A stretch of 64,000 bases of DNA from Escherichia coli (GTDB lineage Bacteria > Pseudomonadota > Gammaproteobacteria > Enterobacterales > Enterobacteriaceae). Positions 1-20,898 of this stretch are shown in pieces. The first letter of the stretch is position 1. Every line of letters begins with the position of its first letter. Position numbers and translations under genes: made by a program. The notes below the pieces were generated by a model. That model saw only the letters and a list, made by a program, of their open reading frames with translations. It made no database searches and was not told the origin of the DNA. The DNA lies in NCBI RefSeq assembly GCF_965641715.1, contig NZ_OZ282453.1. One strand, 5' to 3'.

Positions 1-393
1 CACGTAAAAATCGATGTCGCCAGGCTGTTTTCCCGCCAGCGGGCAGGGAACGCCAGGAAAGAGACGAACCGGGCGCAGGTTGACGTACTGGTCGAATTCA
101 CGACGAAATTTCAGCAGCGAACCCCACAACGAAATATGGTCCGGAACGGTGTCCGGCCAGCCGACGGCACCAAAATAGATGGCGTCGAAACGGCTAAGTT
201 GCTCATGCCAGTCGTCCGGCATCATTTTACCGTGATGGCTGTAATACTCGCAGCTCGCCCACTCCATTTGCTCAAAACTCAAGGCGAAGCCCCAGCGCTC
301 AGCGGCAGCCTGTAACACGCGAATCCCTTCAGGAAGGACTTCTTTGCCAATCCCGTCTCCCGGGATCGCAGCAATACGCATCGTTTTCATCAT
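1..393 (-). CDS. dmlA: D-malate dehydrogenase (decarboxylating), 5' portion only; gene runs off the window start
   Basis: Reverse complement of 361-393 translates MMKTMRIAAIP, the DmlA N-terminus; divergent from the LysR regulator gene downstream. Not in the ORF track because it is truncated. Confidence 0.8.
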   Translation of the reverse strand, partial: MMKTMRIAAIPGDGIGKEVLPEGIRVLQAAAERWGFALSFEQMEWASCEYYSHHGKMMPDDWHEQLSRFDAIYFGAVGWPDTVPDHISLWGSLLKFRREFDQYVNLRPVRLFPGVPCPLAGKQPGDIDFYV

Positions 394-495
394 TGGGTTC
401 TCACTTCCTGACCATCAAAATTGACAACATCACCATCCTATAATTGACTGAAAAGGAATTAATCCCTGTAACTGGTGAAACATAAAACACGAATC

Positions 496-1419
496 ATGAA
501 TAATTTACCGCTGCTGAATGATTTGCGCGTCTTTATGCTGGTGGCTCGCCGGGCTGGTTTTGCCGCCGTGGCGGAAGAACTGGGCGTTTCACCGGCGTTC
601 GTCAGCAAGCGCATCGCCTTGCTGGAGCAAACGCTAAACGTGGTGTTGTTACACCGCACCACCCGCCGCGTCACCATTACCGAAGAAGGAGAGCGGATTT
701 ATGAATGGGCGCAGCGGATTTTGCAGGATGTCGGTCAGATGATGGACGAACTTTCTGACGTGCGTCAGGTGCCACAGGGGATGCTGCGTATTATCAGCAG
801 CTTTGGTTTTGGACGACAGGTGGTGGCTCCGGCGTTATCAGCGCTGGCGAAGGCGTATCCGCAACTGGAATTACGTTTTGATGTGGAAGACCGGCTGGTC
901 GATTTGGTCAATGAAGGTGTCGATCTCGATATTCGCATTGGCGATGACATCGCCCCTAATTTAATCGCCCGCAAACTGGCGACCAATTACCGCATTCTCT
1001 GCGCGTCGCCGGAATTTATTGCGCAACATGGCACGCCGAAACATTTAACCGATCTTTCTGCATTGCCGTGCCTGGTCATTAAAGAGCGCGATCATCCTTT
1101 TGGTGTCTGGCAATTACGCAATAAAGAAGGCCACCATGCGATTAAAGTCACCGGCCCACTGTCGTCTAATCATGGAGAAATTGTCCATCAGTGGTGTCTC
1201 GATGGGCAGGGGATTGCTCTGCGTTCCTGGTGGGATGTTAGCGAAAACATTGCCAGTGGTCATTTAGTGCAAGTGCTACCGGAATATTACCAGCCAGCGA
1301 ACGTCTGGGCCGTTTATGTTTCAAGGCTGGCGACGTCAGCGAAAGTGCGGATAACGGTAGAATTTTTACGCCAGTATTTTGCCGAGCACTACCCGAATTT
1401 TTCACTGGAGCATGCCTGA
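496..1419 (+). CDS. dmlR: LysR-family transcriptional regulator of dmlA
   Basis: ORF 475-1419; internal ATG at 496 gives a 307-aa product starting MNNLPLLNDLRVF, with an HTH LysR N-terminus; divergent from dmlA. Confidence 0.9.
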   Translation: MNNLPLLNDLRVFMLVARRAGFAAVAEELGVSPAFVSKRIALLEQTLNVVLLHRTTRRVTITEEGERIYEWAQRILQDVGQMMDELSDVRQVPQGMLRIISSFGFGRQVVAPALSALAKAYPQLELRFDVEDRLVDLVNEGVDLDIRIGDDIAPNLIARKLATNYRILCASPEFIAQHGTPKHLTDLSALPCLVIKERDHPFGVWQLRNKEGHHAIKVTGPLSSNHGEIVHQWCLDGQGIALRSWWDVSENIASGHLVQVLPEYYQPANVWAVYVSRLATSAKVRITVEFLRQYFAEHYPNFSLEHA

Positions 1420-1476
1420 TTAATGATTCAATTATCGGGTTGATATCAGGTTAAAACCTGATTTTCTCCTTTCTAA

Positions 1477-2184
<708 letters not shown>

Positions 2185-2267
2185 TGCTTTCAGCCCGCGT
2201 TGTCGCGGGCTTCCCATCTATAATCCTCCCTGATTCTTCTCTGATATGGTGCTAAAAAGTAACCAAT

Positions 2268-2290
2268 AAATGGTATTTAAAATGCAAATT
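2268..2290 (+). promoter_or_regulatory. Candidate NsrR-type operator in the yeaR promoter region
   Basis: AT-rich imperfect dyad aaatggtatttaaaatgcaaatt about 70 bp upstream of the yeaR ATG; yeaR-yoaG is a known NsrR/NarL-controlled operon. The match to the NsrR consensus is only partial. Confidence 0.3.
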
Positions 2291-2468
2291 ATCAGGCGTA
2301 CCCTGAAACGGCTGGAATAAACCGTTTTCAGCGCATTCACCGAAGGAGGGAAAAGGATGCTTCAAATCCCACAGAATTATATTCATACGCGCTCAACGCC
2401 TTTCTGGAATAAACAAACTGCACCTGCTGGAATATTCGAACGTCATCTTGATAAAGGAACGCGCCCGG

Positions 2469-2478
2469 GGGTTTACCC
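2469..2478. repeat. Left copy of the IS186 target-site duplication (gggtttaccc)
   Basis: Identical 10-mer directly abuts both IS ends; GC-rich target, typical for IS186. Confidence 0.7.
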
Positions 2479-3817
2479 CATAAGCGCTAACTTAAGGGTT
2501 GTGGTATTACGCCTGATATGATTTAACGTGCCGATGAATTACTCTCACGATAACTGGTCAGCAATTCTGGCCCATATTGGTAAGCCCGAAGAACTGGATA
2601 CTTCGGCACGTAATGCCGGGGCTCTAACCCGCCGCCGCGAAATTCGTGATGCTGCAACTCTGCTACGTCTGGGGCTGGCTTACGGCCCCGGGGGGATGTC
2701 ATTACGTGAAGTCACTGCATGGGCTCAGCTCCATGACGTTGCAACATTATCTGACGTGGCTCTCCTGAAGCGGCTGCGGAATGCCGCCGACTGGTTTGGC
2801 ATACTTGCCGCACAAACACTTGCTGTACGCGCCGCAGTTACGGGTTGTACAAGCGGAAAGAGATTGCGTCTTGTCGATGGAACAGCAATCAGTGCGCCCG
2901 GGGGCGGCAGCGCTGAATGGCGACTACATATGGGATATGATCCTCATACCTGTCAGTTCACTGATTTTGAGCTAACCGACAGCAGAGACGCTGAACGGCT
3001 GGACCGATTTGCGCAAACGGCAGACGAGATACGCATTGCTGACCGGGGATTCGGTTCGCGTCCCGAATGTATCCGCTCACTTGCTTTTGGAGAAGCTGAT
3101 TATATCGTCCGGGTTCACTGGCGAGGATTGCGCTGGTTAACTGCAGAAGGAATGCGCTTTGACATGATGGGTTTTCTGCGCGGGCTGGATTGCGGTAAGA
3201 ACGGTGAAACCACTGTAATGATAGGCAATTCAGGTAATAAAAAAGCCGGAGCTCCCTTTCCGGCACGTCTCATTGCCGTATCACTTCCTCCCGAAAAAGC
3301 ATTAATCAGTAAAACCCGACTGCTCAGCGAGAATCGTCGAAAAGGACGAGTAGTTCAGGCGGAAACGCTGGAAGCAGCGGGCCATGTGCTATTGCTAACA
3401 TCATTACCGGAAGATGAATATTCAGCAGAGCAAGTGGCTGATTGTTACCGTCTGCGATGGCAAATTGAACTGGCTTTTAAGCGGCTCAAAAGTTTGCTGC
3501 ACCTGGATGCTTTGCGTGCAAAGGAACCTGAACTCGCGAAAGCGTGGATATTTGCTAATCTACTCGCCGCATTTTTAATTGACGACATAATCCAGCCATC
3601 GCTGGATTTCCCCCCCAGAAGTGCCGGATCCGAAAAGAAGAACTAACTCGTTGTGGAGAATAACAAAAATGGTCATCTGGAGCTTACAGGTGGCCATTCG
3701 TGGGACAGTATCCCTGACAGCCTACAAAACGCAATTGAAGAACGCGAGGCATCGTCTTAACGAGGCACCGAGGCGTCGCATTCTTCAGATGGTTCAACCC
3801 TTAAGTTAGCGCTTATG
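2479..3817 (+). mobile_element. IS186 insertion sequence (IS4 family), about 1.34 kb
   Basis: Terminal inverted repeats cataagcgctaacttaagggttg (2479-2501) and its reverse complement (3795-3817); single transposase ORF inside; flanked by a 10-bp direct duplication. Confidence 0.9.
2534..3646 (+). CDS. insL: IS186 transposase InsL
   Basis: ORF 2528-3646; internal ATG at 2534 gives 370 aa, MNYSHDNWSAILAHIG...; lies inside the inverted-repeat-bounded element. Confidence 0.9.
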   Translation: MNYSHDNWSAILAHIGKPEELDTSARNAGALTRRREIRDAATLLRLGLAYGPGGMSLREVTAWAQLHDVATLSDVALLKRLRNAADWFGILAAQTLAVRAAVTGCTSGKRLRLVDGTAISAPGGGSAEWRLHMGYDPHTCQFTDFELTDSRDAERLDRFAQTADEIRIADRGFGSRPECIRSLAFGEADYIVRVHWRGLRWLTAEGMRFDMMGFLRGLDCGKNGETTVMIGNSGNKKAGAPFPARLIAVSLPPEKALISKTRLLSENRRKGRVVQAETLEAAGHVLLLTSLPEDEYSAEQVADCYRLRWQIELAFKRLKSLLHLDALRAKEPELAKAWIFANLLAAFLIDDIIQPSLDFPPRSAGSEKKN

Positions 3818-3827
3818 GGGTTTACCC
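3818..3827. repeat. Right copy of the IS186 target-site duplication (gggtttaccc)
   Basis: Direct repeat of 2469-2478 immediately after the right inverted repeat. Confidence 0.7.
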
Positions 3828-4068
3828 ACGCCTTTCCGTTATGCATGGGGCGGTCAAATATCTCGGCTACGCTGATGAACACAGTGCAGAGCCTGATCAG
3901 GTGATCCTTATCGAAGCGGGGCAGTTTGCGGTGTTCCCTCCAGAAAAGTGGCACAACATTGAAGCCATGACTGACGATACTTATTTCAACATTGACTTCT
4001 TCGTGGCTCCTGAAATCCTGATGGAAGGTGCGCAACAACGGAAAGTCATTCATAACGGGAAATGAATC

Positions 4069-4251
4069 ATGGGCAAAGCAACGTATACCGTGACCGTCAC
4101 CAATAACAGCAATGGCGTTTCTGTCGATTATGAAACAGAGACGCCGATGACTTTGCTGGTGCCAGAAGTGGCGGCTGAAGTGATAAAAGATCTGGTGAAT
4201 ACCGTGCGTTCTTATGACACGGAAAACGAACATGATGTTTGTGGTTGGTAA
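4069..4251 (+). CDS. yoaG: DUF1869 small protein, second gene of the yeaR-yoaG operon
   Basis: 60-aa ORF MGKATYTVTVTNNSNG... directly downstream of yeaR. Confidence 0.85.
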   Translation: MGKATYTVTVTNNSNGVSVDYETETPMTLLVPEVAAEVIKDLVNTVRSYDTENEHDVCGW

Positions 4252-4398
4252 TTATCACTGATCGTTGATGGCGCAATTTCTGCGCCATCGCAAAATAATC
4301 CTCCGTGATGCTCGTCACAAATCTTGCCCTCCCGATGTTGTGCTATGCTTTTTATCAGCGACTAACCCGCTAATGCAAAACAGATAAGTGAGGAAACA

Positions 4399-4647
4399 AT
4401 GGGCATTCTGTCATGGATTATTTTTGGGCTTATTGCCGGTATTCTGGCGAAGTGGATCATGCCAGGTAAAGATGGTGGTGGATTCTTTATGACTATCCTG
4501 CTGGGGATAGTCGGTGCCGTAGTCGGCGGATGGATCAGCACGCTGTTTGGCTTTGGTAAAGTTGATGGCTTCAATTTTGGCAGCTTCGTGGTTGCCGTTA
4601 TTGGTGCGATTGTCGTGCTATTTATCTACAGGAAGATTAAAAGTTAA
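4399..4647 (+). CDS. yeaQ: GlsB/YeaQ/YmgE-family small membrane protein
   Basis: 82-aa glycine-rich two-TM ORF; good RBS (gaggaaaca) upstream. Confidence 0.85.
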   Translation: MGILSWIIFGLIAGILAKWIMPGKDGGGFFMTILLGIVGAVVGGWISTLFGFGKVDGFNFGSFVVAVIGAIVVLFIYRKIKS

Positions 4648-4661
4648 CGCTTAAATTGCAC

Positions 4662-4696
4662 AAAGGCTGCACACAGGCAGCCTTTGCTATTTTTTA
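4662..4696 (+). terminator. Rho-independent terminator after yeaQ
   Basis: Hairpin aaaggctgc / gcagccttt followed by a T-run. Confidence 0.6.
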
Positions 4697-4705
4697 GAGG
4701 TGACG

Positions 4706-4780
4706 TTACCACCATCCCAGCTCAGTGCCGAGTACGACAATAATCGCCACACCCATCATAATAATCGTTGTTTTTTTCAT
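4706..4780 (-). CDS. yoaJ: Small hydrophobic protein (24 aa)
   Basis: Reverse-strand ORF MKKTTIIMMGVAIIVVLGTELGWW; below the ORF-track size cut-off, read by hand. Confidence 0.5.
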   Translation of the reverse strand: MKKTTIIMMGVAIIVVLGTELGWW

Positions 4781-4782
4781 CT

Positions 4783-4881
4783 TTATGCTCCCGGGGCAGC
4801 ATAGCCGCCAATAAAAAACCATGCTAAAAATACGACCGCTGTAATGAAGATTACAACCGGAAAAATAATACCGATTCGCAT
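4783..4881 (-). CDS. yoaK: Small hydrophobic protein (32 aa)
   Basis: Reverse-strand ORF MRIGIIFPVVIFITAVVFLAWFFIGGYAAPGA; read by hand. Confidence 0.5.
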   Translation of the reverse strand: MRIGIIFPVVIFITAVVFLAWFFIGGYAAPGA

Positions 4882-4913
4882 GTTATCACCAATCAAAAGG
4901 ATGTGAATACGCC

Positions 4914-5939
4914 TCAGGAATGTAGCGCTGGATGCGTGACAAAAGGTGTTTTCTGTTTGTGTTTTTTCTCCTGATACATCGCGATATCGGCAGCATGCAG
5001 GGCACTGTCTGCATCGGTCGTTTCAGGATCGACTTCTACTATGCCAAGACTGGCACCGGGATAATACAAATCAACATCACCTAAGTGATATTCTCCACGT
5101 ATTTGCTGTTGAATACGTTCTCGCAGCGACGAAATATCCGCATTCTCGTTGTTTAGTGAAACAACCAAAAACTCATCACCACCGAGACGACCAATAACTT
5201 CGCCATTTTGCTGGAGCGTATTAAGGCGCTCGCCAACCTGAATGAGAAACAGATCGCCACTATTATGACCAAAACGATCATTGATTAATTTGAAGTTATC
5301 CAGATCGATAAACGCGATCATTATCTTATGGTTAAGATGCCGGGCGAGGGAAAACAGCGTCGTCAGATTTTCAAAAATCGCCCGCCGATTCGGTAGCCCG
5401 GTTAACGAGTCGGTATACGATTGCGCAATCAGCGCAGCATTGGCTTCGCGCAGCTGTTCAACCAGTGCCTCTTTTTGAATATATTGTGCAATCAGTCCGG
5501 CGAATAACTGTAAAACCTGTTCCGCGCGTTCACTCCACTGGCGCTTCTCACTGCTGGCGGCGCAAAGCGTGCCATAGAATGATCCATCCGGTAAGTGAAT
5601 TGGCGTGCTCAGAAATGTGGTGATGCCAAGATTGCGTGCCGCAATACAGTCGCCCCAACGGTCAGGGACTTCATCGCTGAAAAAGCAGTTTTCATCAATG
5701 GCGCGTTTGCATAACGAGTAATCCCACGAGACGGTAAAATTCTCCGGGATGTGCATTTTCTGGCTGTTACGGGCAAACATAATATGCTGCAGGCGCGCTT
5801 CGACATCCACTTTGGTCAGGTAGGTTGATTCCATATCAGTGACCATTTCCAGCATCTCCAGAAGCTGTCGGACCAGACTTTCCAGTGACTGTTCTTTGGC
5901 AAGGGATTGCGAGACGCGGGCGATAATCTGATCTGACAC
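4914..5939 (-). CDS. dgcP: Diguanylate cyclase with GAF-like N-domain and GGDEF domain
   Basis: ORF 4914-6068 trimmed to the GTG at 5939 (341 aa, MSDQIIARV...); RLGGDEF motif present. Confidence 0.9.
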   Translation of the reverse strand: MSDQIIARVSQSLAKEQSLESLVRQLLEMLEMVTDMESTYLTKVDVEARLQHIMFARNSQKMHIPENFTVSWDYSLCKRAIDENCFFSDEVPDRWGDCIAARNLGITTFLSTPIHLPDGSFYGTLCAASSEKRQWSERAEQVLQLFAGLIAQYIQKEALVEQLREANAALIAQSYTDSLTGLPNRRAIFENLTTLFSLARHLNHKIMIAFIDLDNFKLINDRFGHNSGDLFLIQVGERLNTLQQNGEVIGRLGGDEFLVVSLNNENADISSLRERIQQQIRGEYHLGDVDLYYPGASLGIVEVDPETTDADSALHAADIAMYQEKKHKQKTPFVTHPALHS

Positions 5940-6121
5940 GGAACAACTCCAGGATACGGCGGGTAAATGCTGATTATTTAATCTTTGCAGGCATGATAAA
6001 ACATCATCAACAAAGATGAAACAAGACGTAATATGTTTTGAGTGAATGTAATAAAAATAGTGCTGCAAAACAAAACGATACCGCGATACTCTAAGCTTGG
6101 ATACATATGTGAGATCAATAA

Positions 6122-6376
6122 ATGAAAATTATCAGTTTTGTTCTGCCTTGCTTGCTGATCCTAGCTGGTTGTTCAACCCGTTCTCAGCCAGAAGCACCTA
6201 AACCGCCGCAGATTGGTATGGCAAATCCGGCGTCGGTCTATTGCCAGCAGAAGGGCGGGACGCTCATTCCAGTGCAGACAGCGCAAGGGGTCAGCAACAA
6301 TTGCAAATTACCGGGTGGTGAAACGATTGATGAATGGGCATTGTGGCGACGGGACCATCCGGCTGGTGAAAAATAA
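6122..6376 (+). CDS. yoaF: DUF333 lipoprotein
   Basis: 84-aa ORF with a lipobox signal peptide (LLILAGCSTRS). Confidence 0.85.
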   Translation: MKIISFVLPCLLILAGCSTRSQPEAPKPPQIGMANPASVYCQQKGGTLIPVQTAQGVSNNCKLPGGETIDEWALWRRDHPAGEK

Positions 6377-6397
6377 CCGCCGGATGCCGTACTAAAA

Positions 6398-6745
6398 TCA
6401 CAAGCTACGTAGCCAGTCGGCCAGCACCAGCGCATGGTTCTGCGTGGCGTTTTTTGCTGAGTAGAGCAGGGTCAGCGGCTGTTTTTTGGCGATGTCCGCT
6501 AGCCGCTTTCCTTCTTGCTCGTGTTGCGCCAGTTCTGCAAGATATTGCTCGCGAAAGGTTGCAAAATCGACGACTTCGCCGTGAAAGGCTTTGCGCAGTT
6601 CCGTTGACGGCGTGATTTCTTTATCCCACTCATCAAGGGCTAAATCGGTTTTTTTGATACCGCGCGGCCAGAGGCGGTCGACCAGTATGCGATAACCATC
6701 GCTCTGTTCTGCCGGATCATAAACGCGTTTGCACTGAATATTCAT
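6398..6745 (-). CDS. yeaO: DUF488 protein
   Basis: ORF 6398-6766 trimmed to the internal ATG (115 aa, MNIQCKRVYD...). Confidence 0.85.
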   Translation of the reverse strand: MNIQCKRVYDPAEQSDGYRILVDRLWPRGIKKTDLALDEWDKEITPSTELRKAFHGEVVDFATFREQYLAELAQHEQEGKRLADIAKKQPLTLLYSAKNATQNHALVLADWLRSL

Positions 6746-6799
6746 CGTGTTTGTTCTCCCTTTCACGCATGATTTGTCACGTCACTATAGCACCGGATA

Positions 6800-7981
6800 T
6801 TAGCGAATTTCTTTGTCTCTTCCGGCGCAAAGTCCGAAAATCGCCATCAGTAGTGAAAGTATTGCAACACCCATCAGTGGTACGGACCAGTCACCGTTAG
6901 CATCGTGCATTTTACCCATCAGCGGCGGCCCACAGGCTGCCAGCAAATACCCGACGGATTGTGCCATCCCCGAGAGTGCCGCCGCCTGATGCGCAGAACT
7001 TGCCCGAAGACCAATGAACGTCAACCCCAGTATCATTGTTGCGCCGGAACCAAAACCGAAAAGCAGAGTCCAGGTGATCGCATGCGCTGGCATAAAGCAG
7101 AGCCCAACCGCGCCCACTGCGCACATCAAGGCAACGAACGCTGCAATACCACGCTGATCTTTCACATGATGTAAGAAAAGTGGGATCAGCAAACCGGGCG
7201 CTGCTGTGGCTAGTTGCAGCAAACCATGCAGTGAACCCGCCTGTGCTTCGCTATAGCCGTGACTGATGAGGATCGCCGGAAGCCAGCCAATAATCACGTA
7301 ATAGATCAGTGAGTTGATCCCAAGAAACAATGTTACCTGCCAGGCAAGCGGCGAACGCCAGATACCCCGAGTATGTAAGGCGCGCGAGGTACTCAAATTT
7401 GCATGTTGTTGGCTTCGCCACTGTGGCAGCCATAAAAAAAGAGCCAGCAGAGGAAAACACATCAGCATGAGCAACGCGCCTTGCCAGCCAAAACCGTTCA
7501 AAGCCAGCGGCACTACCATAGCCGATCCCAGAGCCGCCGCAGCTCCCATTGTCAGGGAATATGCGCCGGTAAGTCTGGCGACGGAATGAGGGAAATCGCG
7601 TTTAATTAATCCTGGCAGTAAGACATTACCTAATGCAATCCCACCGCCAATGACCGCTGTACCGCCAAATAATAAGTAAGGCGAAGGGAGAGAGCGAATT
7701 GCGATACCTGCACAGATCAAAAGTAACGCGGCAAACAGGCTACGTTCCATACCAAAACGTCGCGCCACCGGGGCAGCCAGAGGTGAGATTAGCGCAAAGG
7801 CCAATAATGGCAGGGTGGTCAATAAGCCGGTTTGCGCAGTCGTCAGCGAGTAAGCGGAACGAATCGTATCGAGTAACGGTGCTGCGCCGGTGAAGGTGAC
7901 GCGTAATGTAGTGGCAATCATCAGAATGCCAGCGATAAGGACAATCCTGTTTTTGCCGCTTAATGAAGTTGAACAGGTCAT
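6800..7981 (-). CDS. yeaN: MFS transporter (2-nitroimidazole exporter NimT)
   Basis: 393-aa, 12-TM-like ORF; divergent from the AraC regulator yeaM. Confidence 0.85.
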   Translation of the reverse strand: MTCSTSLSGKNRIVLIAGILMIATTLRVTFTGAAPLLDTIRSAYSLTTAQTGLLTTLPLLAFALISPLAAPVARRFGMERSLFAALLLICAGIAIRSLPSPYLLFGGTAVIGGGIALGNVLLPGLIKRDFPHSVARLTGAYSLTMGAAAALGSAMVVPLALNGFGWQGALLMLMCFPLLALFLWLPQWRSQQHANLSTSRALHTRGIWRSPLAWQVTLFLGINSLIYYVIIGWLPAILISHGYSEAQAGSLHGLLQLATAAPGLLIPLFLHHVKDQRGIAAFVALMCAVGAVGLCFMPAHAITWTLLFGFGSGATMILGLTFIGLRASSAHQAAALSGMAQSVGYLLAACGPPLMGKMHDANGDWSVPLMGVAILSLLMAIFGLCAGRDKEIR

Positions 7982-8077
7982 ATGCTTCTCATTGTTACAA
8001 ACGAGGCTGTACCTTACCGTTTTTATTGTTATGTTGAATCAAGCTAAAATGACAAATTATCGCTAAATTCGGACAAA

Positions 8078-8899
8078 ATGATGCACAGGTTGAATCTCAA
8101 TGGCTATGAACCCGACCGACACCATGAAGCCGCGGTCGCATTTTGTATTCACGCCGGAACGGATGAGTTAACCAGTCCTGTACATCAGCACCGCAAAGGA
8201 CAGCTGATACTGGCGCTACATGGTGCAATTACCTGTACGGTGGAAAATGCTTTGTGGATGGTGCCGCCACAATATGCGGTTTGGATACCGGGCGGGGTGG
8301 AACATAGCAATCAAGTGACAGCTAACGCTGAACTCTGTTTTCTGTTTATCGAACCCAGCGCAGTGACAATGCCGACAACATGTTGCACATTGAAAATATC
8401 GCCCTTATGCCGGGAATTGATTTTAACCCTGGCAAACAGGACGACGACTCAGCGTGCTGAGCCGATGACCCGCAGATTAATTCAGGTCCTGTTTGATGAA
8501 CTCCCTCAGCAGCCACAACAACAGCTGCACCTGCCCGTTTCTTCTCATCCTAAAATCCGCACGATGGTGGAGATGATGGCGAAAGGGCCCGTCGAGTGGG
8601 GGTCATTGGGGCAATGGGCTGGCTTTTTTGCGATGAGTGAACGCAATCTTGCCCGACTGATAGTAAAAGAGACGGGGTTGAGTTTTCGCCAGTGGCGTCA
8701 GCAGTTACAGCTGATTATGGCGCTTCAGGGATTAGTGAAAGGCGATACTGTACAGAAAGTTGCTCATACGCTGGGGTATGATTCAACAACGGCCTTTATT
8801 ACTATGTTTAAGAAAGGCCTGGGGCAAACGCCAGGCCGATATATTGCGGGATTAACTACTGTTTCCCCACAATCAGCGAAACCAGACCCGCGGCAATAA
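8078..8899 (+). CDS. yeaM: AraC-family transcriptional regulator (NimR)
   Basis: 273-aa ORF with a cupin-like N-domain and AraC HTH C-terminus. Confidence 0.85.
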
Positions 8900-9302
8900 G
8901 CGGGCCAACCGGTACGCCGCGAAACAGCGCCACGCCTAAAACAGTGCCCACCAGCAGCCCGGCGACCAGTTGCGGCTGGCTGCCCATTAACGTCACGCCG
9001 CGCCCACCCAGCCAGGAGACAATAACGCCTACTGCAATTGCCACCAGCGATTTCCAGTTCAGAAACGAGTGAATCAGGGTTGAGGGTGGTAGCGTCCCGC
9101 TGGCGATGGGGGCCATAACGCCAATCGTCAGAATGATTATCCCGATACTTAGCCCCTGTTTTTCAATCCACGGGAAAAAGGTGCTTAACGGTGTGACGCG
9201 GACAATGATCAACACCAGAATTGAAACGGCGACAGTGGTGTTATGACTGATAAAGCCCAGCGCAGCTAACCCGAGCAGGATCAGCAAAGTGACATCAAAC
9301 AT
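8856..9302 (-). CDS. yeaL: DUF441 inner-membrane protein
   Basis: 148-aa hydrophobic ORF; its 3' end overlaps the yeaM 3' end by about 44 bp. Confidence 0.85.
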
Positions 9303-9471
9303 CGTGGTTTCCTTGCCAAAAAATAATAAGCCTGCTTACTTTACGCTTGCTGCAGGAAGGAAGTAGAAAATCTTTACGTTTTTTGCATAAAAAATCAGGC
9401 GAACTGTCATCAAACTGCCATTTGTGCACGCTAACAATAACGTGAAAACAGCTATCTCCCGGGGGCATACT

Positions 9472-9576
9472 ATGAACGATCAAATGTTCGTCGAGACACT
9501 GATTATCACGTCATCGTTTTTTGCCATTGCGGTTGTGCTGGTTTTGTCCGTTCTGCTTATTGAACGGACAGGCTAG
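9472..9576 (+). CDS. yoaI: Small membrane protein (34 aa)
   Basis: [37 protein letters not shown], read by hand; abuts the yeaK stop. Confidence 0.5.
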
Positions 9577-10080
9577 TTACGCAGTGCGGCGGAAATTGAT
9601 CAGTTCTGGTTGCGCAATGCGCAAATAATCCGCGGTTTTCAAAATAACGGATTTATCCAGCATCCCTGCATTGAAGGCGATTTCATCAAATCGTTCGAAG
9701 AGTAGGGGGTCGGCAACCAGTTTGAGTTTTGGATGGAAGCTGAAAGGGGGGATCGCGCCGAAGACACAGCCTGTGAGTTCATCGACTTCCGCCGGGCTGG
9801 CCAACGAAGCGCGTAATCCGCCTATATGGCTGGCGAGTTGGCTCAGATCGGCCTGTTGATCGGCAGCGAGGATCGCCAGAACATGTTGATTTACGCCATT
9901 GCCTTTGACTTTACATACCAGTGCCTTAGCACCCTGGCCTAGAGCGGTGCCACGAATTTCTGACACCGCTTCACATTTACCTACCGCTTCATGGGTAACG
10001 ACGCGGAAATCAGCACCTTCTTGTGATAATAAAGCGATTAACCGCTGATGCGTCACGCTTCCTTTAGCCATTTCAGTCAT
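9577..10080 (-). CDS. yeaK: YbaK/ProX-type aminoacyl-tRNA deacylase
   Basis: 167-aa ORF; synteny. Confidence 0.85.
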   Translation of the reverse strand: MTEMAKGSVTHQRLIALLSQEGADFRVVTHEAVGKCEAVSEIRGTALGQGAKALVCKVKGNGVNQHVLAILAADQQADLSQLASHIGGLRASLASPAEVDELTGCVFGAIPPFSFHPKLKLVADPLLFERFDEIAFNAGMLDKSVILKTADYLRIAQPELINFRRTA

Positions 10081-10122
10081 TTCACGCTCCTGAGATTACA
10101 AGCAAACAACCACAGAAGGTTA

Positions 10123-11613
10123 TCATGAACGGCTGTTTTTGTTCTGCTTATTGACATATAAACGCTCATCGGAAGCTTTATACGCATCATGTAACGTATC
10201 GTTTTCTTTCATCGCGTAAATACCGGAAGAGAAGCCGATCTCTTTCTGCGGCGCGATATGTTGCAGACGTTTTTCGATACGTTCAGGCAGTTGTGCTGCA
10301 ATTTGCGGCGTCGAATCGACAAGAATGATGCAGAATTCATCGCCACCGAGTCGGATGGCATAATCACTTTTACGAATCGATTGTTTAATCGCCTGAGCTA
10401 ACAACGTAATCGCTAAATCCCCTTCCTGATGACCGAGGGTGTCATTTATTAGCTTTAACTTGTCCATGTCAATTGCAATAAACATCACCGAAGAACCGGA
10501 TTGCACCAGTTTCTGCAACCGCTGCTCCAGTTCAGGGGTTAAAATTTTGCGATTATACAGTCCAATCATCGCATCACTAATATTTTCTCGCGACACATTT
10601 TGGTATAAACGGAAGTGCATCCGGACCATATTCAGCAAAATTAACGCCGTCAAAATCCAGAACAGAACGCTTTTCCACGAAGACGTGATAAAGTAAAGAA
10701 TATCAATGGATAACGAGACACGAATGCCGCCCGGTAAGTCATGGACGTAACTGACATACTGGAACAGATTATCTTCGCTCTGGTTGATGATAATGTCGCG
10801 CCCCGAATCTGTATCGGTTAGCGTGACATTGAGAAAACGCCAGAGGAGAGGGCGGTCATGAGTGTAAAAGATATTCCGCAGATTGTTTTTGTTAATATCC
10901 AGCAGCACAATCCCTTTTAGCTGCCCTGCAACATACACCGGCGTCAGCAAACTCATCACGTTCTGTTTAGTACGCTGATCCTGGTAAATGCTCGACAATA
11001 CGGTACGCCCGGTAAATACCTTTTCAATATCTTTGCGATCGATGCCAATACTTCCTGACTGCAGGAAGGACCAGTTATTCATCGCAAAGTATTCAACATT
11101 AACCGGCTCATAAAAATAGACATAGCGGTCATTGAGATCGAGATAATAGTGAAATTTCTCTTCGGCCATCCCAAGACCTGAACCGTAATCATCCTGGTGG
11201 CGGTTGCCTTCCACTGCCTGATCAAAAGCGGGTAATAGTGCTGCAGCTTCCACAATTGTGTCGCAGTCAGTGGATGCGGTTTGTAGTGTGCCGCGTAAGC
11301 CCGGGTATTTATGGGCAGTCAGGTTTAAGCCATGGGTATTATTGGCAGACTCAAAAGCCTCGCAGATGGCGCGCCGCTGTTCTGGCGACACTTCCGACTG
11401 CTCAGCAGCGAGAGCGCGCATCACATGCGCGGCAATACTCTGATTCTGATACTTATCATAAAGAAAGGAGGAGTCTGCTTTCTGCACGATATAGCGCAGA
11501 TAGGCACTCATTGCTCTGTCGCTGGCGACAAGTTCAAAAATAAGGAAGGAAGATGTCAGCACAATGACACTTGCGGCGATAAAATGCCGGAGCATTCTAT
11601 GGTGCAATTTCAT
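10123..11613 (-). CDS. dgcJ: Membrane diguanylate cyclase with periplasmic sensor domain and GGDEF domain
   Basis: ORF 10123-11793 trimmed to the ATG at 11613 (496 aa, MKLHHRMLRHF...); RLGGDEF motif. Confidence 0.9.
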   Translation of the reverse strand: MKLHHRMLRHFIAASVIVLTSSFLIFELVASDRAMSAYLRYIVQKADSSFLYDKYQNQSIAAHVMRALAAEQSEVSPEQRRAICEAFESANNTHGLNLTAHKYPGLRGTLQTASTDCDTIVEAAALLPAFDQAVEGNRHQDDYGSGLGMAEEKFHYYLDLNDRYVYFYEPVNVEYFAMNNWSFLQSGSIGIDRKDIEKVFTGRTVLSSIYQDQRTKQNVMSLLTPVYVAGQLKGIVLLDINKNNLRNIFYTHDRPLLWRFLNVTLTDTDSGRDIIINQSEDNLFQYVSYVHDLPGGIRVSLSIDILYFITSSWKSVLFWILTALILLNMVRMHFRLYQNVSRENISDAMIGLYNRKILTPELEQRLQKLVQSGSSVMFIAIDMDKLKLINDTLGHQEGDLAITLLAQAIKQSIRKSDYAIRLGGDEFCIILVDSTPQIAAQLPERIEKRLQHIAPQKEIGFSSGIYAMKENDTLHDAYKASDERLYVNKQNKNSRS

Positions 11614-11793
11614 GATAAATGGCACTCCTTCGGTTAGTGAAACGAGAAAACCAGATAAAGTTCGATTGCGGCCTGGCACAGGGGCGCTAATTATACTCAT
11701 CTCTGCGCCGCTGGGGAGGGGAAATTTAGGGGTAATAGTAATAAATTGTATGCAAAAGCCACGCAAAAAGCATGGCTCTGAATATTTTTGCAC

Positions 11794-13269
11794 TTAAATA
11801 TGATGAATAATCACTTTGTTGCCCCCCTCGCTTTTCGCTTCGCGTAAGGCTTTATCTGCTTCCGTCATGACAAGCGAGATATTACGCGTGTCACCCGTTG
11901 AAAAAACCGTGCCAATACTGATGGTCATTTGTTCAGGAACATCATATCTGTTACTAAAGCCGGTCAGGAGTTCGACATTTTTACGCATACGTTCCGCAAT
12001 GATTTTTGCCTGGGCACTATTGAGTTCGGTAAATAGCAAGCCAAACACCTCACCCTCCAGTCGCGCTAAAATATCATCGGGGCGGATGCTTTGCTGGATA
12101 ATATCGACAATTGAAACCAGCACTTTATCACCCACACGATGTCCCCATTGGGCATTGATGCGTTTGAACTGATTAATATCAACCAGCATGACACAGAAGT
12201 CCTTAACAACAGGTCGCGACAATAATGACTCTACGCTGTTGAAAAAGTAGCGCCGATTGTAAATATTGGTCAGCACATCATGAACTGCCAGTTTGCTGGA
12301 GAGTTGCAGCTCCTGAAAAATGTTATAAATCAGAAAAGACACAACAAACAGTTTACTGGAGACTTCAATCCCGCGACTGATATACCAGATGGTATAATTA
12401 TACTCATCCAGAGTCAGTAGAAGTAAGTTGCAGCATAGCGATGCCAGACATAATAATGCTATTAACGGCCATAGTTCGCTGGCTAATCGTGTACGCATGA
12501 TAATAAAGAACAGTAAAAATGCCCACAGACAAACCAATATTTTTGTATAGTTGATTCCCCAGGTCGCAGTATGGTTGTCCGGACAGTAATCGACGACATA
12601 CAAAGAATAGTCAGCGTTATAACTGCTCAGATTGTGTGCCAGAAGGGGAAAAACTAAAAAAGGAATCAGCGCCAGCAACAGAATGCCAGTTTTTTTCTTA
12701 TTGTTGTCAAGGATGTTGTCTTTTCCATAACAAAAGAGCGCCAGCGAGGTTAAACAAATAAAACTGAGTTGGCGGAAAATATAGAAAATAGAAACATCAT
12801 TCGACTTTGTCTGGATCAGTGTACTGCCGTTAATTGGTTTATGGATAATTACAATGGTTTCAACTAAATAGATAAGGCCACTTAAAAATGCAAGGCTTAA
12901 AATGAGTGTTGGTAAAATTTGTTTGTTAGTGAAATATTTCATTAACATGAAAAGAAAAATGACGGCGTTAAGGAAAAACAAAGCCACAACAACCATCAGG
13001 TAATTCATCTGTGGGATGAGTTTTACATTTGTGTTTTCGTTATATAAGGTAGTAATGCAAAATAAAATTAACGTCAGCAATAAACTGAAAATAAAAAAGC
13101 TTTGAGCTTTTAATTTTTGTGTACCCATAGAAACCATAAAAAGGAGAGCAATGTGAGTGCTGGATTTTATTGATGGCAGAGATATATGGTTTTGACCAGG
13201 ATCAATTTTCGTTAACGATAAAAAATATTTAAAGAATAACCCCATGGAAATACGTGTTGACTGAATCAT
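11794..13269 (-). CDS. cdgI: Membrane protein with degenerate GGDEF domain (c-di-GMP binding, CdgI)
   Basis: 491-aa ORF; multi-TM N-terminal half; C-terminal GGDEF fold whose motif reads EGEVF instead of GGDEF; AT-rich. Confidence 0.85.
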   Translation of the reverse strand: MIQSTRISMGLFFKYFLSLTKIDPGQNHISLPSIKSSTHIALLFMVSMGTQKLKAQSFFIFSLLLTLILFCITTLYNENTNVKLIPQMNYLMVVVALFFLNAVIFLFMLMKYFTNKQILPTLILSLAFLSGLIYLVETIVIIHKPINGSTLIQTKSNDVSIFYIFRQLSFICLTSLALFCYGKDNILDNNKKKTGILLLALIPFLVFPLLAHNLSSYNADYSLYVVDYCPDNHTATWGINYTKILVCLWAFLLFFIIMRTRLASELWPLIALLCLASLCCNLLLLTLDEYNYTIWYISRGIEVSSKLFVVSFLIYNIFQELQLSSKLAVHDVLTNIYNRRYFFNSVESLLSRPVVKDFCVMLVDINQFKRINAQWGHRVGDKVLVSIVDIIQQSIRPDDILARLEGEVFGLLFTELNSAQAKIIAERMRKNVELLTGFSNRYDVPEQMTISIGTVFSTGDTRNISLVMTEADKALREAKSEGGNKVIIHHI

Positions 13270-13415
13270 TTTTCCGAATGATTGTTTTCTGGAACTAAAT
13301 TATGTAAAGGTTATGCTGTCATATTTAAAGCGATTGTAAGCTAATGTATGTAATAAATGAGATAATTTACAGTAAGCTAAAAATCAGCCAGGCGATAATG
13401 ACCCGGCTGATAGTT

Positions 13416-14711
<1,296 letters not shown>

Positions 14712-14811
14712 CTACATTTGCCAACTGTATGCTACGCCTGTGTTGCCGCTTCTCAGGCCCACGGTTCGCTGTCGTTGTAGGCCCGGTAGCATGTGTACCG
14801 GGCCAGGGTTG

Positions 14812-16746
14812 TTAAGACGATTTACGTACGCGCAAATACCATTCGCACAGTAAACGCACCTGTTTACGGGTGTAGCCTTTTTCCATCATACGGTCGACAA
14901 AGTCGTCGTGTTTCTTCTGCTCGTCGGTTGACGTTTTGGCGTTAAACGAGATAACCGGCAACAGCTCCTCGGTATTGGAGAACATTTTCTTCTCGATAAC
15001 CGTGCGCAGTTTTTCATAGCTGGTCCAGTTCGGATTGCGTCCGCTGTTATTCGCTCTGGCGCGCAGTACGAAGTTAACAATCTCGTTGCGGAAATCTTTT
15101 GGATTACTGATCCCCGCCGGTTTCTCGATTTTCTCCAGCTCGGCGTTAAGAGACTCGCGGTCAAACAGCTGCCCGGTATCCGGATCGCGATACTCCTGAT
15201 CCTGAATCCAGAAATCCGCGTAGGTAACATAACGGTCGAAAATGTTTTGCCCATATTCGGAATAGGATTCAAGGTAGGCCGTCTGGATCTCTTTGCCAAT
15301 AAACTCGGCATATTTCGGGATCAGATAACCTTTCAGGAACTCCAGATAGCGTTCTGCCTGCTCTTGTGGGAACTGCTCGCGCTCGATCTGCTGTTCCAGG
15401 ACGTAGAACAGATGGACCGGGTTTGCCGCCACTTCTACATGATCGAAGTTGAACACGCGGGAGAGGATCTTAAACGCAAAACGCGTCGACAGACCGTTCA
15501 TCCCTTCATCGACACCGGCGTAGTCACGATATTCCTGATACGACTTGGCTTTGGGATCGGTGTCTTTCAGACTTTCGCCATCATAAACCCGCATCTTTGA
15601 ATAAATGCTGGAGTTTTCTGGCTCTTTCAGGCGCGAAAGAATGGAAAAACGTGACAGTGTTTCGAGCGTGCCAGGGGCGCATGGGGCGTGAGTCAATTCA
15701 CTGTGATTAAGCAATTTCTCGTAGATTTTGATCTCTTCGGAAATGCGCAAGCAATACGGCACCTTCACGATGTAAACACGATCGAGGAAGGCTTCGTTGT
15801 TTTTGTTATTACGGAAAGTGACCCATTCGGACTCGTTCGAGTGGGCAAGAATAATCCCGTTGAACGGCAGGGCGGAGATACCTTCCGTCCCGTTGTAGTT
15901 ACCTTCCTGAGTGGCGGTTAACAAGGGATGCAGCACTTTAATCGGTGCTTTAAACATCTCAACGAATTCCATGATCCCCTGGTTGGCGCGGCACAGTGCG
16001 CCGGAATAGCCATAGGCGTCTGGGTCATTCTGCGCGTAGTGTTCGAGTTTACGAATATCCACTTTCCCTACCAGCGCGGAGATGTCCTGGTTGTTCTCAT
16101 CACCGGGCTCTGTTTTGGCGATGGCAATTTGTTGCAGAATTGACGGCCAGACCTTCACTACCCGGAACTTAGTGATATCGCCACCAAATTCATGCAGGCG
16201 TTTTGCCGCCCACGGCGACATGATGGTGCCGAGATAACGGCGAGGAATGCCATACTCTTTTTCCAGAATCTGCGCATCTTCCTGCGGATTGAAAAGACAG
16301 AACGGATGATCGTTGACCGGGCTACGCTCACCGTTGGCGCTCAATACATAAATCGGTACGAGCTGCATTAATGATTTCAGTCGCTCAGCAAGCGATGATT
16401 TACCCCCACCCACAGGCCCCAGCAGATACAGGATTTGTTTCTTCTCTTCCAGCCCCTGAGCCGCGTGTTTCAGATAAGAGACAATCTGTTCAATCGCGTC
16501 TTCCATGCCGTAAAACTCTTCAAACGCCGGATAACGTGCAATGACCCGGTTAGAAAAGAGTCGAGAAAGTCTGGGTTCCTGGGCTGTATCGACCATGACA
16601 GGCTCACCGATAGCCATCAATAGCCGCTCAGCCGCGTTGGCATAAGCACTGCGATCTTGCCGACAAGTGGTAAGAAACTCCTGCAGTGTGAACTCTTCGT
16701 CCTTGGCAGCTTCATATCGCTGGCGATAGTGATCGAATATATTCAT
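14812..16746 (-). CDS. yeaG: PrkA-family serine protein kinase
   Basis: 644-aa ORF with a P-loop GPVGGGKSS. Confidence 0.9.
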   Translation of the reverse strand: MNIFDHYRQRYEAAKDEEFTLQEFLTTCRQDRSAYANAAERLLMAIGEPVMVDTAQEPRLSRLFSNRVIARYPAFEEFYGMEDAIEQIVSYLKHAAQGLEEKKQILYLLGPVGGGKSSLAERLKSLMQLVPIYVLSANGERSPVNDHPFCLFNPQEDAQILEKEYGIPRRYLGTIMSPWAAKRLHEFGGDITKFRVVKVWPSILQQIAIAKTEPGDENNQDISALVGKVDIRKLEHYAQNDPDAYGYSGALCRANQGIMEFVEMFKAPIKVLHPLLTATQEGNYNGTEGISALPFNGIILAHSNESEWVTFRNNKNNEAFLDRVYIVKVPYCLRISEEIKIYEKLLNHSELTHAPCAPGTLETLSRFSILSRLKEPENSSIYSKMRVYDGESLKDTDPKAKSYQEYRDYAGVDEGMNGLSTRFAFKILSRVFNFDHVEVAANPVHLFYVLEQQIEREQFPQEQAERYLEFLKGYLIPKYAEFIGKEIQTAYLESYSEYGQNIFDRYVTYADFWIQDQEYRDPDTGQLFDRESLNAELEKIEKPAGISNPKDFRNEIVNFVLRARANNSGRNPNWTSYEKLRTVIEKKMFSNTEELLPVISFNAKTSTDEQKKHDDFVDRMMEKGYTRKQVRLLCEWYLRVRKSS

Positions 16747-17181
16747 GGTATGCCGTCCTTTCGTTTTTTAGCACAGGTTAAGAGCCGTTCATATGAATAG
16801 TAGAGGCTCCCGGAAGAGGTAAACTGAACGACGTCTCTTGCTAAAACACAGCAACTCTCATGCCATTTTATCGACGATGAGAACAACGTGCCCGGTGATA
16901 CACCTTCAAAATTAAGCGTAGATGGCAAATGGAAAACTTGCCTACACGGCTTTCTTAATTTCAATGGCATATCAACAACTCATCCATACATTTTGCATAA
17001 TTAATGTAAAGACTAGGCTCGCCAGTAACGCTAAATTCATTTGGCTGTAAGCGCGGTGTCATCCGCGTCAGGAAAATTAAACAGTTACTTTAAAAAATGA
17101 AAACGTAAAAAGGTTGGGTTTCGATGTATTGACGGGTAAACTTTGTCGCCCGCTAAACATTTGTTTAAGGAATGATTAATT

Positions 17182-17928
17182 GTGACCAAACTCAAACTTC
17201 TGGCACTTGGAGTGCTTATCGCAACGTCTGCAGGCGTAGCGCACGCTGAAGGTAAATTTTCCCTGGGCGCAGGCGTAGGTGTCGTTGAACACCCATATAA
17301 AGATTACGATACCGATGTTTACCCAGTACCGGTAATCAACTATGAAGGCGATAACTTCTGGTTCCGTGGCTTAGGTGGTGGTTACTACCTGTGGAATGAC
17401 GCAACGGATAAACTTTCAATTACCGCTTACTGGTCGCCGCTTTACTTCAAAGCTAAAGACAGTGGCGATCACCAAATGCGTCACCTGGATGACCGTAAGA
17501 GCACCATGATGGCTGGTCTGTCTTATGCTCACTTTACCCAGTACGGTTACCTGCGTACCACCCTGGCTGGCGATACCCTGGATAACAGCAACGGCATCGT
17601 CTGGGATATGGCCTGGTTGTATCGTTACACCAACGGTGGCCTGACCGTGACTCCGGGTATTGGTGTGCAGTGGAACAGCGAAAACCAGAACGAATACTAT
17701 TATGGCGTATCGCGCAAAGAGTCCGCTCGCAGCGGTCTGCGTGGCTATAATCCGAACGACAGCTGGAGCCCTTACCTGGAGCTGAGCGCCAGCTACAACT
17801 TCCTCGGCGACTGGAGTGTTTACGGTACCGCGCGCTATACCCGTCTGTCTGATGAAGTTACTGACAGCCCGATGGTGGATAAATCCTGGACTGGCCTGAT
17901 TTCTACCGGGATCACCTACAAATTCTGA
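17182..17928 (+). CDS. mipA: Outer-membrane MltA-interacting scaffold protein
   Basis: 248-aa ORF with a GTG start and signal peptide; beta-barrel-like aromatic C-terminus (ITYKF). Confidence 0.9.
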   Translation: MTKLKLLALGVLIATSAGVAHAEGKFSLGAGVGVVEHPYKDYDTDVYPVPVINYEGDNFWFRGLGGGYYLWNDATDKLSITAYWSPLYFKAKDSGDHQMRHLDDRKSTMMAGLSYAHFTQYGYLRTTLAGDTLDNSNGIVWDMAWLYRYTNGGLTVTPGIGVQWNSENQNEYYYGVSRKESARSGLRGYNPNDSWSPYLELSASYNFLGDWSVYGTARYTRLSDEVTDSPMVDKSWTGLISTGITYKF

Positions 17929-17959
17929 TAATGCATCTTTCCAGGGCATTTTGTGCATA

Positions 17960-17985
17960 AAAACAGGGCGTCACGCCCTGTTTTG
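17960..17985 (+). terminator. Rho-independent terminator after mipA
   Basis: Hairpin cagggcg-tca-cgccctg followed by tttt. Confidence 0.6.
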
Positions 17986-18017
17986 CATTACGGTGGTGCA
18001 ATACCTGGGAGGAAACA

Positions 18018-18872
18018 ATGCAACAAAAAATGATTCAATTTAGTGGCGATGTCTCACTGCCAGCCATAGGGCAGGGAACATGGTATATGGGCGAAGATGC
18101 CAGTAAGTGTAAAACAGAAGTTGCTGCACTACGCGCGGGCATTGAGCTCGGTTTAACCCTCATTGATACCGCCGAAATGTATGCCGATGGTGGTGCCGAA
18201 AAGGTGGTTGGGGAAGCATTAACCGGTCTGCGTGATAACGTCTTTCTCGTCTCTAAAGTCTATCCGTGGAATGCTGGCGGGCAAAAAGCGATAAATGCAT
18301 GCGAAGCCAGTTTACGCCGTCTCAATACTGATTATCTCGATCTCTACTTATTACACTGGTCTGGCAGTTTCGCTTTTGAAGAGACTGTCGCAGCGATGGA
18401 AAAATTGATCGCCCAGGGAAAAATCCGCCGCTGGGGCGTTTCGAACCTTGATTATGCTGATATGCAGGAACTCTGGCAGCTGCCGGGGGGAAATCAGTGT
18501 GCCACTAATCAGGTGCTTTACCATCTCGGTTCACGAGGGATTGAGTACGATCTACTCCCCTGGTGCCAGCAACAGCAGATGCCGGTGATGGCTTACAGTC
18601 CGTTAGCCCAGGCCGGGCGGTTGCGCAATGGACTGTTAAAAAACGCGGTAGTCAACGAAATTGCACATGCTCACAATATCAGCGCGGCACAAGTATTGTT
18701 GGCGTGGGTAATCAGCCATCAGGGTGTGATGGCGATTCCAAAAGCGGCCACGATTGCCCATGTCCAACAGAATGCGGCTGTGCTTGAGGTCGAACTTTCG
18801 TCAGCGGAATTAGCCATGCTGGATAAAGCGTATCCGGCACCAAAAGGAAAAACTGCGCTGGATATGGTGTGA
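18018..18872 (+). CDS. yeaE: Aldo-keto reductase (methylglyoxal reductase)
   Basis: 284-aa AKR-family ORF. Confidence 0.9.
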   Translation: MQQKMIQFSGDVSLPAIGQGTWYMGEDASKCKTEVAALRAGIELGLTLIDTAEMYADGGAEKVVGEALTGLRDNVFLVSKVYPWNAGGQKAINACEASLRRLNTDYLDLYLLHWSGSFAFEETVAAMEKLIAQGKIRRWGVSNLDYADMQELWQLPGGNQCATNQVLYHLGSRGIEYDLLPWCQQQQMPVMAYSPLAQAGRLRNGLLKNAVVNEIAHAHNISAAQVLLAWVISHQGVMAIPKAATIAHVQQNAAVLEVELSSAELAMLDKAYPAPKGKTALDMV

Positions 18873-18915
18873 TGTTGATACGTGCCGGATGCATCGCACC
18901 CGGCACACAACATTA
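18873..18915. repeat. REP-like palindrome between yeaE and yeaD
   Basis: gtgccggatgcatcgcacccggcac dyad in the convergent intergenic region. Confidence 0.35.
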
Positions 18916-18922
18916 ACGCAAA

Positions 18923-19807
18923 TTAACGTTTCGCAACGCGAATGGATTGCGCCAGATGTGCAGGTTTCTCTTTGGTCACTTTTTGCGTTTCTGAAGCGTA
19001 AGCCGTTTCTACACAAACAAATGTTTTGTAGCCATCATCCGGCATATCGCCCATGCTAACTGAAAGCGCCGGTCCCGGGTTCCAGCCTACAACGTTCAGA
19101 TGATGCTGGTGGCCTACGGCGATAATACGATTCAGCGCTTCATCATTAATCACGCTGCAATCTTGCGGATTCAGATACACGCGATCGGTACGGTCAGGGA
19201 AGGTCTGAATACCGTCGGTCAGTACATCTTCTTTCGCGTCATTTACTTTATCAATGAAGCGATAGCCCAGCCCACTGACGCTTACCTTAGCGATATCACC
19301 CACGTTAAAGTAGGTATGCAGGGCAGAGGTGGTTTCAAATTCGCCATGTGATTCAAGATCGATTTCACAGGTTTTACCCACGCGGAAATGCGCTAACAGC
19401 GTAAAGTCGTGCGGCCAGAATTTTTTCGTCTCTTCGCTTTGTGTCAATTCAAAAGTCAGCGCTACGCCATCAGCATCTTCATGATGTGATTTCAGCGTCC
19501 ACGGCAGGTTGCGGGCAAAACCGTGCGCAGGCAGACCTTGTTGTGCAGCCGGACCAAACCACGGCCAGCAAACCGGTACGCCACCGCGAATAGCGACGCC
19601 ATTTTTGAACGGTGTGTTGTTGCTCAACCACAGAACTTCTTCTTCACCCGCAGGTTTCCACGAGAGAAGGTGTGCGCCCTGTAATGCAAAAGAGGCTTTT
19701 ACCTGGGGATGATCGACCACAATGAGGTCCAGTTCATCCAGTTTACGACGGGAGAGGACAGGGGAGATTTGTTCGATGACCGGAAGGGCAAAAATTTTCT
19801 TAATCAT
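18923..19807 (-). CDS. yeaD: Glucose-6-phosphate 1-epimerase (hexose-6-phosphate mutarotase)
   Basis: ORF 18923-19828 trimmed to the internal ATG at 19807 (294 aa, MIKKIFALP...). Confidence 0.9.
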   Translation of the reverse strand: MIKKIFALPVIEQISPVLSRRKLDELDLIVVDHPQVKASFALQGAHLLSWKPAGEEEVLWLSNNTPFKNGVAIRGGVPVCWPWFGPAAQQGLPAHGFARNLPWTLKSHHEDADGVALTFELTQSEETKKFWPHDFTLLAHFRVGKTCEIDLESHGEFETTSALHTYFNVGDIAKVSVSGLGYRFIDKVNDAKEDVLTDGIQTFPDRTDRVYLNPQDCSVINDEALNRIIAVGHQHHLNVVGWNPGPALSVSMGDMPDDGYKTFVCVETAYASETQKVTKEKPAHLAQSIRVAKR

Positions 19808-19837
19808 GACGCAGTCCTTTAACTTCATTTTATCAGG

Positions 19838-19870: not shown

Positions 19871-19890
19871 GATCACAGTGTCATCTCAAC

Positions 19891-20898
<1,008 letters not shown>

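Follow-up and report, generated by a model that had tools for sequence, protein, structure and literature searches.

A complete IS186 inside yeaR of an Escherichia coli strain, at a site repeatedly hit in the species

The interrupted yeaR gene and its surroundings

The window, i.e., the whole 64-kb stretch of DNA that was analysed here, displays the gene order leuE-yeaR-yoaG-yeaQ, then yoaJ/K and dgcP, which matches that of MG1655; within this succession, yeaR is interrupted by an insertion sequence (Table 1). The first-pass annotation of this DNA had described an otherwise intact frame of 119 codons, split after codon 40 and resuming exactly after a duplicated target. The interruption of a 119-codon frame holds, but the position of the break has to be corrected: the upstream part of yeaR counts 122 nt, i.e., 40 codons plus 2 nt, and the gene is, thus, cut after the second base of codon 41. 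When 2357-2478 is joined to 3828-4065, the frame does resume after the duplication and is open over 360 nt, or 119 codons; the rebuilt YeaR is identical to that of MG1655 at 118 of its 119 residues (I104 instead of V104), with one further synonymous difference at the nucleotide level. Read alone from 3828, the 3′ fragment is out of frame; only the join with the 5′ part restores its frame. In other genomes carrying the insertion, the 5′ stretch is labelled by PGAP as “DUF1971 domain-containing protein, missing C-terminus”.

Table 1. Coordinates of the features of the interrupted yeaR locus (positions in the window).
Feature	Position	Strand	Remarks
leuE (leucine exporter), upstream neighbour	1546..2184	+	212-aa ORF; leuE annotated at the same position in colinear loci
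yeaR 5′ fragment	2357..2478	+	Codons 1-40 plus 2 nt of codon 41; translation MLQIPQ...TRPGVY
Chimeric 54-aa ORF	2357..2521	+	40 YeaR residues, Pro, 13 residues from the left end of the IS, stop inside the IS; MLQ...GVYPISANLRVVVLRLI, then stop
Target-site duplication, left copy	2469..2478		GGGTTTACCC; direct repeat D4
IS186, complete	2479..3817	+	1339 bp when counted CATAAG...CTTATG
Left terminal inverted repeat, 23 bp	2479..2501	+	CATAAGCGCTAACTTAAGGGTTG
insL transposase gene	2534..3646	+	IS4 family, 370 aa; codirectional with yeaR
Right terminal inverted repeat, 23 bp	3795..3817	−	CATAAGCGCTAACTTAAGGGTTG
Target-site duplication, right copy	3818..3827		GGGTTTACCC; direct repeat D4 and junction strings
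yeaR 3′ fragment	3828..4065	+	Last base of codon 41 to the stop codon
yoaG, downstream gene of the yeaR-yoaG operon	4069..4251	+	60-aa ORF; annotated yoaG in colinear loci

The identity of the element was established by nucleotide comparison with the MG1655 feature annotated “insertion sequence:IS186A”, to which 2479-3816 is 100% identical (1338 of 1338 positions). Its 23-bp terminal inverted repeats show no mismatch between the two ends; CATAAGCGCTAACTTAAGGGTTG is found at exactly two places in the 64-kb window, both of them IS186 ends, no further copy appears in the window when up to three mismatches are allowed, and none is expected in shuffled sequence (100 shuffles). The window, accordingly, holds a single IS186 copy. 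The sole long ORF within the element (2528-3646, + strand) encodes 372 aa from a GTG codon or 370 aa from the ATG at 2534, and it scores 133.3 bits against the IS4 family transposase model NF033592 of NCBIfam, for a cutoff of 115; the IS4 signature Y-x2-R-x3-E-x6-K can be read in it as YRLRWQIELAFKRLK, within ...CYRLRWQIELAFKRLK.... In other genomes, the identical gene carries the PGAP label “IS4-like element IS421 family transposase” (WP_001300563.1), and the names IS186 and IS421 are linked by the product line of insL1 in the MG1655 record, “IS186/IS421 family transposase”, which carries both. Judged from these comparisons, 2479-3817 is an IS186 of the IS4 family with InsL as its transposase, and nothing contradicts this identification; the first-pass annotation had already proposed the element, its 23-bp inverted repeats and its single 370-aa transposase ORF. 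The copy appears intact and, in view of its identity to active K-12 copies, is probably still active.

The insertion is flanked by direct repeats whose length depends on how the right junction is counted. The repeat finder returned an 11-nt direct repeat, GGGGTTTACCC, at 2468-2478 and 3817-3827 (start-to-start spacing of 1349), in which the last base of the right inverted repeat (..CTTATG) doubles as the first G of the right GGGGTTTACCC copy. Due to this shared G, the sequence is compatible both with an IS186 of 1339 bp generating a 10-bp duplication and with one of 1338 bp generating an 11-bp duplication; the 10-bp direct repeats initially reported are, therefore, present on both sides, and extend to 11 nt if the ambiguous G is counted. 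The empty MG1655 site holds a single copy of the duplicated sequence.

The window aligns colinearly over its entire length with the opposite strand of MG1655 (about 1,882,304 descending to about 1,819,642) at 98.2-99.4% identity, and IS186 is the only large difference over the 64 kb. Window segments 1-2478 and 3817-23657 abut on MG1655 with an 11-bp overlap, so that the alignment yields 1338 + 11 = 1349 extra bases, exactly the gap that had been predicted; yeaR is uninterrupted in MG1655, which thus provides the empty site and bears out the earlier view that the K-12 reference lacks IS186 there. On this alignment, we assign the window to a non-K-12 lineage and read the insertion in yeaR as a simple IS186 transposition event with an intact duplication, as was first thought. 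A rearrangement or a composite transposon was also considered and is ruled out by the single IS copy in the window and by flanks that are colinear with MG1655 on both sides. In mechanistic terms, a cut with a 10-bp stagger at a preferred target inside yeaR would have let IS186 transpose in, with GGGTTTACCC being duplicated in the process.

A few smaller features of the window deserve a mention in their own right. A net deletion of 13 nt relative to MG1655 (CGTCGACGTA plus 3 further bases) lies in the sppA-ansA intergenic region, at about 32910-32917; the other indels are of 1-3 nt and intergenic, save that in ydjZ. This gene of the DedA family (235 aa in MG1655; 48128-48834, − strand) is present as two overlapping ORFs of 118 and 133 aa, owing to a frameshift near 48506 where 1 nt is deleted relative to MG1655 (GCGC-GCGCC against GCGCCGCGCC); either ydjZ is a pseudogene in this strain, or the missing base is a sequencing error within a run of G and C. 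Searches for Rfam families and tRNA genes gave no match in IS186 or its vicinity; the one Rfam match of the whole window was the ES036 (CssrF) sRNA at 60235-60277 (− strand; 42.9 bits for a gathering score of 37.6), placed by colinearity with MG1655 in the nadE-cho intergenic region.

Occupancy and target motif of the yeaR site

The state of the yeaR site was counted in 5,426 complete E. coli genomes with three 300-nt queries taking 150 nt on each side of a junction, a design that limits a bare flank, or an IS copy at another locus, to roughly half of the query length. The site is empty in 4,963 genomes, carries IS186 inverted with respect to the window in 251, and carries it in the orientation of the window in 194, the latter count missing nested cases such as that of strain E41 (see below), which fall under the 80% coverage threshold of the junction query. 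IS186, thus, occupies this site in no fewer than 445 genomes out of 5,426, or about 8%. A whole-element query at ≥80% coverage had returned 604 carriers; this figure was discarded as inflated, since IS186 copies at other loci attain 80-81% coverage when their flanks are similarly GC-rich. Rough arithmetic on the left ends of IS186 (13,951 places, minus about 5,420 yeaR flanks, plus 194 joined) gives some 8,700 copies in complete genomes, of which about 5% would sit in yeaR, and the site may rank among those that IS186 occupies most often in E. coli. The 42-nt yeaR::IS186 junction is absent from the GTDB species-representative genomes.

These counts do not leave room for the first-pass view that the insertion is probably strain-specific: the allele occurs in both orientations, the K-12 derivatives CV601, ET12567 and a Dam/Dcm strain are among its carriers, and it has already been published. 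Indeed, the K-12 founder strain PFM2 was described with “an extra IS186 insertion ... inside the yeaR gene” (PMC5009759), and IS186 entered yeaR de novo in many independent lines of evolved MG1655, e.g., in 4/4, 3/3 and 4/4 lines of some series (PMC6307192). yeaR::IS186 is a documented recurrent hotspot allele.

The target itself lies inside the variation known for IS186 targets, although it deviates from the exact motif. From 59 new insertions, Lee et al. derived the motif 5′-GGGG(N6/N7)CCCC-3′, with one or two motif mismatches at 7 of the 59 sites; the motif being palindromic, IS186 inserts in either orientation (PMC5009759). The empty yeaR site reads CCC GGGG GTTTAC CCAC GCC, and our site scan places its target, GGGGGTTTACCCAC (GGGG-GTTTAC-CCAC), one mismatch away from GGGG(N6)CCCC, so that the resemblance of this GC-rich target to the IS186 preference, noticed at first sight, is upheld. 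The sole exact GGGG(N6)CCCC site of the window lies at 21052-21065 (GGGGTCGGCGCCCC), between msrB and gapA and about 17 kb from the yeaR site. No insertion occupies it in the window, and in 5,425 of 5,425 complete genomes it is likewise uninterrupted; the yeaR site with its one mismatch, on the other hand, is interrupted in 456 genomes. The simplest reading of this contrast combines purifying selection upstream of gapA with neutrality at yeaR. Should clonal inheritance, together with purifying selection elsewhere, not suffice, we regard as a tentative minority view that IS186 target choice has determinants beyond GGGG(N6/7)CCCC, or that losing yeaR-yoaG brings a slight advantage in the gut or under laboratory conditions; the run of five G, the AT-rich core, or local transcription from a promoter induced by NO and nitrate may be such extra determinants. 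An imperfect site that is often hit and a perfect one that is never hit constitute, together, a small test case of IS186 target choice versus selection.

The question of selection has to be asked for the allele as a whole. High occupancy could reflect selection for the loss of yeaR/yoaG, for example under fluoroquinolones or in the laboratory, rather than target preference alone, in which case the allele of the window would be adaptive. Hoeksema et al. proposed a link between yeaR insertions and enrofloxacin resistance, from data that are correlative (PMC6307192), and a site one mismatch off the motif is interrupted far more than the exact one, which would speak for such selection. One has to keep in mind, however, that the latter comparison takes as its control a site directly upstream of gapA, at which an insertion would probably be harmful, so that the contrast may reflect purifying selection there, and that it covers the interruption of yeaR at this one site. 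Moreover, the allele is found in PFM2, the founder of an unselected mutation-accumulation experiment (PMC5009759), and in assorted cloning and recipient strains, and its two orientations are roughly balanced (194:251), as the palindromic target motif predicts. We, thus, consider selection for loss an unlikely explanation of the occupancy; a hotspot explains the recurrence in the lines of Hoeksema et al. without selection.

Carriers, flanking haplotypes and recurrence

In order to compare individual insertions, 13 carrier loci were sampled. In all of them, and in both orientations, the insertion base and the duplication are identical, with the right junction alone displayed for E41. The flanks of these carriers fall into at least six haplotypes, separated by 13-42 differences per 4 kb, and the ten sampled full-length copies show 0-1 substitutions relative to the IS186 of the window (the copies of EC0026B and E41 stand outside these ten). 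Two K-12 derivatives are particularly informative: CV601 carries IS186 in the orientation of the window, ET12567 carries it inverted, and both have flanks with 0 differences from MG1655 over 4 kb; the K-12 Dam/Dcm strain is listed among the carriers of the inverted orientation. Since MG1655 is empty and derivatives with MG1655-identical flanks carry the element in one or the other direction, there were at least two separate yeaR insertions within laboratory K-12. The flanks of the window differ from those of every sampled carrier at 26-42 sites per 4 kb, and the best carrier match to window 1-8000 among complete genomes reaches 99.4%, which places the lineage of the window outside those sampled among complete carrier genomes. 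Taken together, the two orientations at one base, the K-12 carriers and the six or more haplotypes bearing a near-identical IS tell us that this exact site has been hit repeatedly in E. coli, laboratory K-12 lineages included.

A single old insertion, later inherited or spread by recombination, would account for part of this picture and would turn the allele into the marker of a lineage to which the window belongs, instead of a hotspot. Many carriers do have the flanks of a K-12-like haplotype in common, with 0-3 differences per 4 kb and the element in one or the other orientation, and part of the 194 + 251 carriers is surely due to clonal inheritance within phylogroup-A-like lineages. Such an origin is, nevertheless, improbable for the allele at large: it would have to produce both orientations at the identical base, including opposite ones in K-12 derivatives whose flanks are those of the empty MG1655, as well as haplotypes up to 1% apart bearing copies of such uniformity; it sits equally badly with the distance between the window and every sampled carrier and with the de novo insertions seen in laboratory evolution (PMC6307192). 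As for an assembly or sequencing artefact, in which a repeat would have been collapsed or misplaced at a GC-rich site, its probability is negligible: multi-copy IS elements commonly cause misassembly, but the duplication is perfect here, and the base-exact junctions are identical to those of the 13 sampled, independently assembled genomes and consistent with the 445 junction counts. Our overall explanation, to which we give a probability of about 95%, is a simple insertion of IS186 at a preferred target in yeaR, a site that is repeatedly hit.

Several individual genomes showed peculiarities in or around yeaR. In E41 (NZ_CP069707.1, locus L011, 3001-5486), an IS1A, as a second element, sits within the 5′ part of yeaR, some 70 bp upstream of the junction with IS186. 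In EC0026B_R3 (NZ_OX460323.1, locus L016, 4322-5433), a laboratory-derived isolate on the most divergent flank haplotype among those sampled, the inverted IS186 in yeaR is 1 nt shorter because of a 1-nt deletion, and the annotation marks its transposase as frameshifted; the copy at this same yeaR site is either decayed or mis-sequenced. In strain 203740 (NZ_CP025913.1, locus L017, 4029-5628), yeaR is empty and an IS1B truncates the neighbouring dgcP and yoaJ/K region, another IS polymorphism within the same 3-kb neighbourhood. Lastly, the T at position 2428 of the window is matched by no top hit.

Expected consequences and comparison with known systems

Several lines of reasoning on age and function can be drawn from the sequence. 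The IS bears no substitution relative to IS186A, the two halves of yeaR are otherwise undamaged, and the flanks are at about 0.9% from K-12, all of which suggests that the insertion in the window is evolutionarily recent; the “0 differences” are weak evidence in this respect, as gene conversion can also keep IS copies identical. With a product cut to 40 of 119 residues and extended by a 14-residue tail read from the IS, yeaR::IS186 is predicted to be a null allele. The insertion is also likely to be polar on yoaG, which starts 3 nt past the yeaR stop codon and for which our scan yielded no separate promoter-like site. The promoter scan of 2150-4400 returned 0 promoter-like sites and is uninformative on yoaG expression; the terminator scan of the same region returned 2 weak terminator-like sites, no more than in shuffled sequences. 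insL and yeaR point the same way, so that transcripts from the yeaR promoter, for which PMC6307192 cites induction by nitrate, nitrite and NO, could read into IS186. As widely used laboratory strains carry the same allele, it is unlikely to have a strong phenotype, and ordinary growth is expected to reveal no phenotype at all.

Taken for itself, yeaR::IS186 is a classic case of an IS that disrupts a small gene of unknown function at an already described hotspot, and its wider biological weight is small. Its practical weight is of another kind: as a common recurrent polymorphism found in either orientation, in K-12 stocks as well, it should be expected by annotators and variant callers; it makes a poor lineage marker and, in evolution experiments, is likely to be taken wrongly for a “parallel mutation”.

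The closest known relatives of the element are IS186A, IS186B and IS186C of MG1655 (IS186 = IS421; IS4 family; InsL), which have the same 23-bp inverted repeats and 370-aa transposase as the window copy. With respect to IS186A, location is the only difference, MG1655 having no copy in yeaR. The IS186A site of MG1655 reads GGGG-ATCACT-CCCC, with GGATCACTCC duplicated, and its duplication has the same geometry as that of the yeaR copy: 10 bp made of 2 G, the 6-nt core and 2 C.

Among known IS186 hotspots, the lon promoter of E. coli B (cited in PMC6307192), fimA and menC resemble yeaR in being recurrent, fixed, GC-flanked sites that are hit in either orientation, with the GGGG(N6/N7)CCCC target motif as the driving factor (PMC5009759), and they differ from it in that the yeaR site has CCAC instead of CCCC; at lon, the insertion shows a clear phenotype in the form of Lon deficiency, whereas none is established for yeaR. 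At the level of genomes, the CV601 allele has junctions and orientation identical to those of the window. The insertions published in PFM2 and in evolved MG1655 involve the same element and the same gene as the window, a comparison at the level of the gene since the text of these papers gives no base-level junctions. Those strains are K-12, whereas the flanks of the window, 98.2-99.4% identical to MG1655, are not, which makes the insertion described here an independent occurrence in another lineage.
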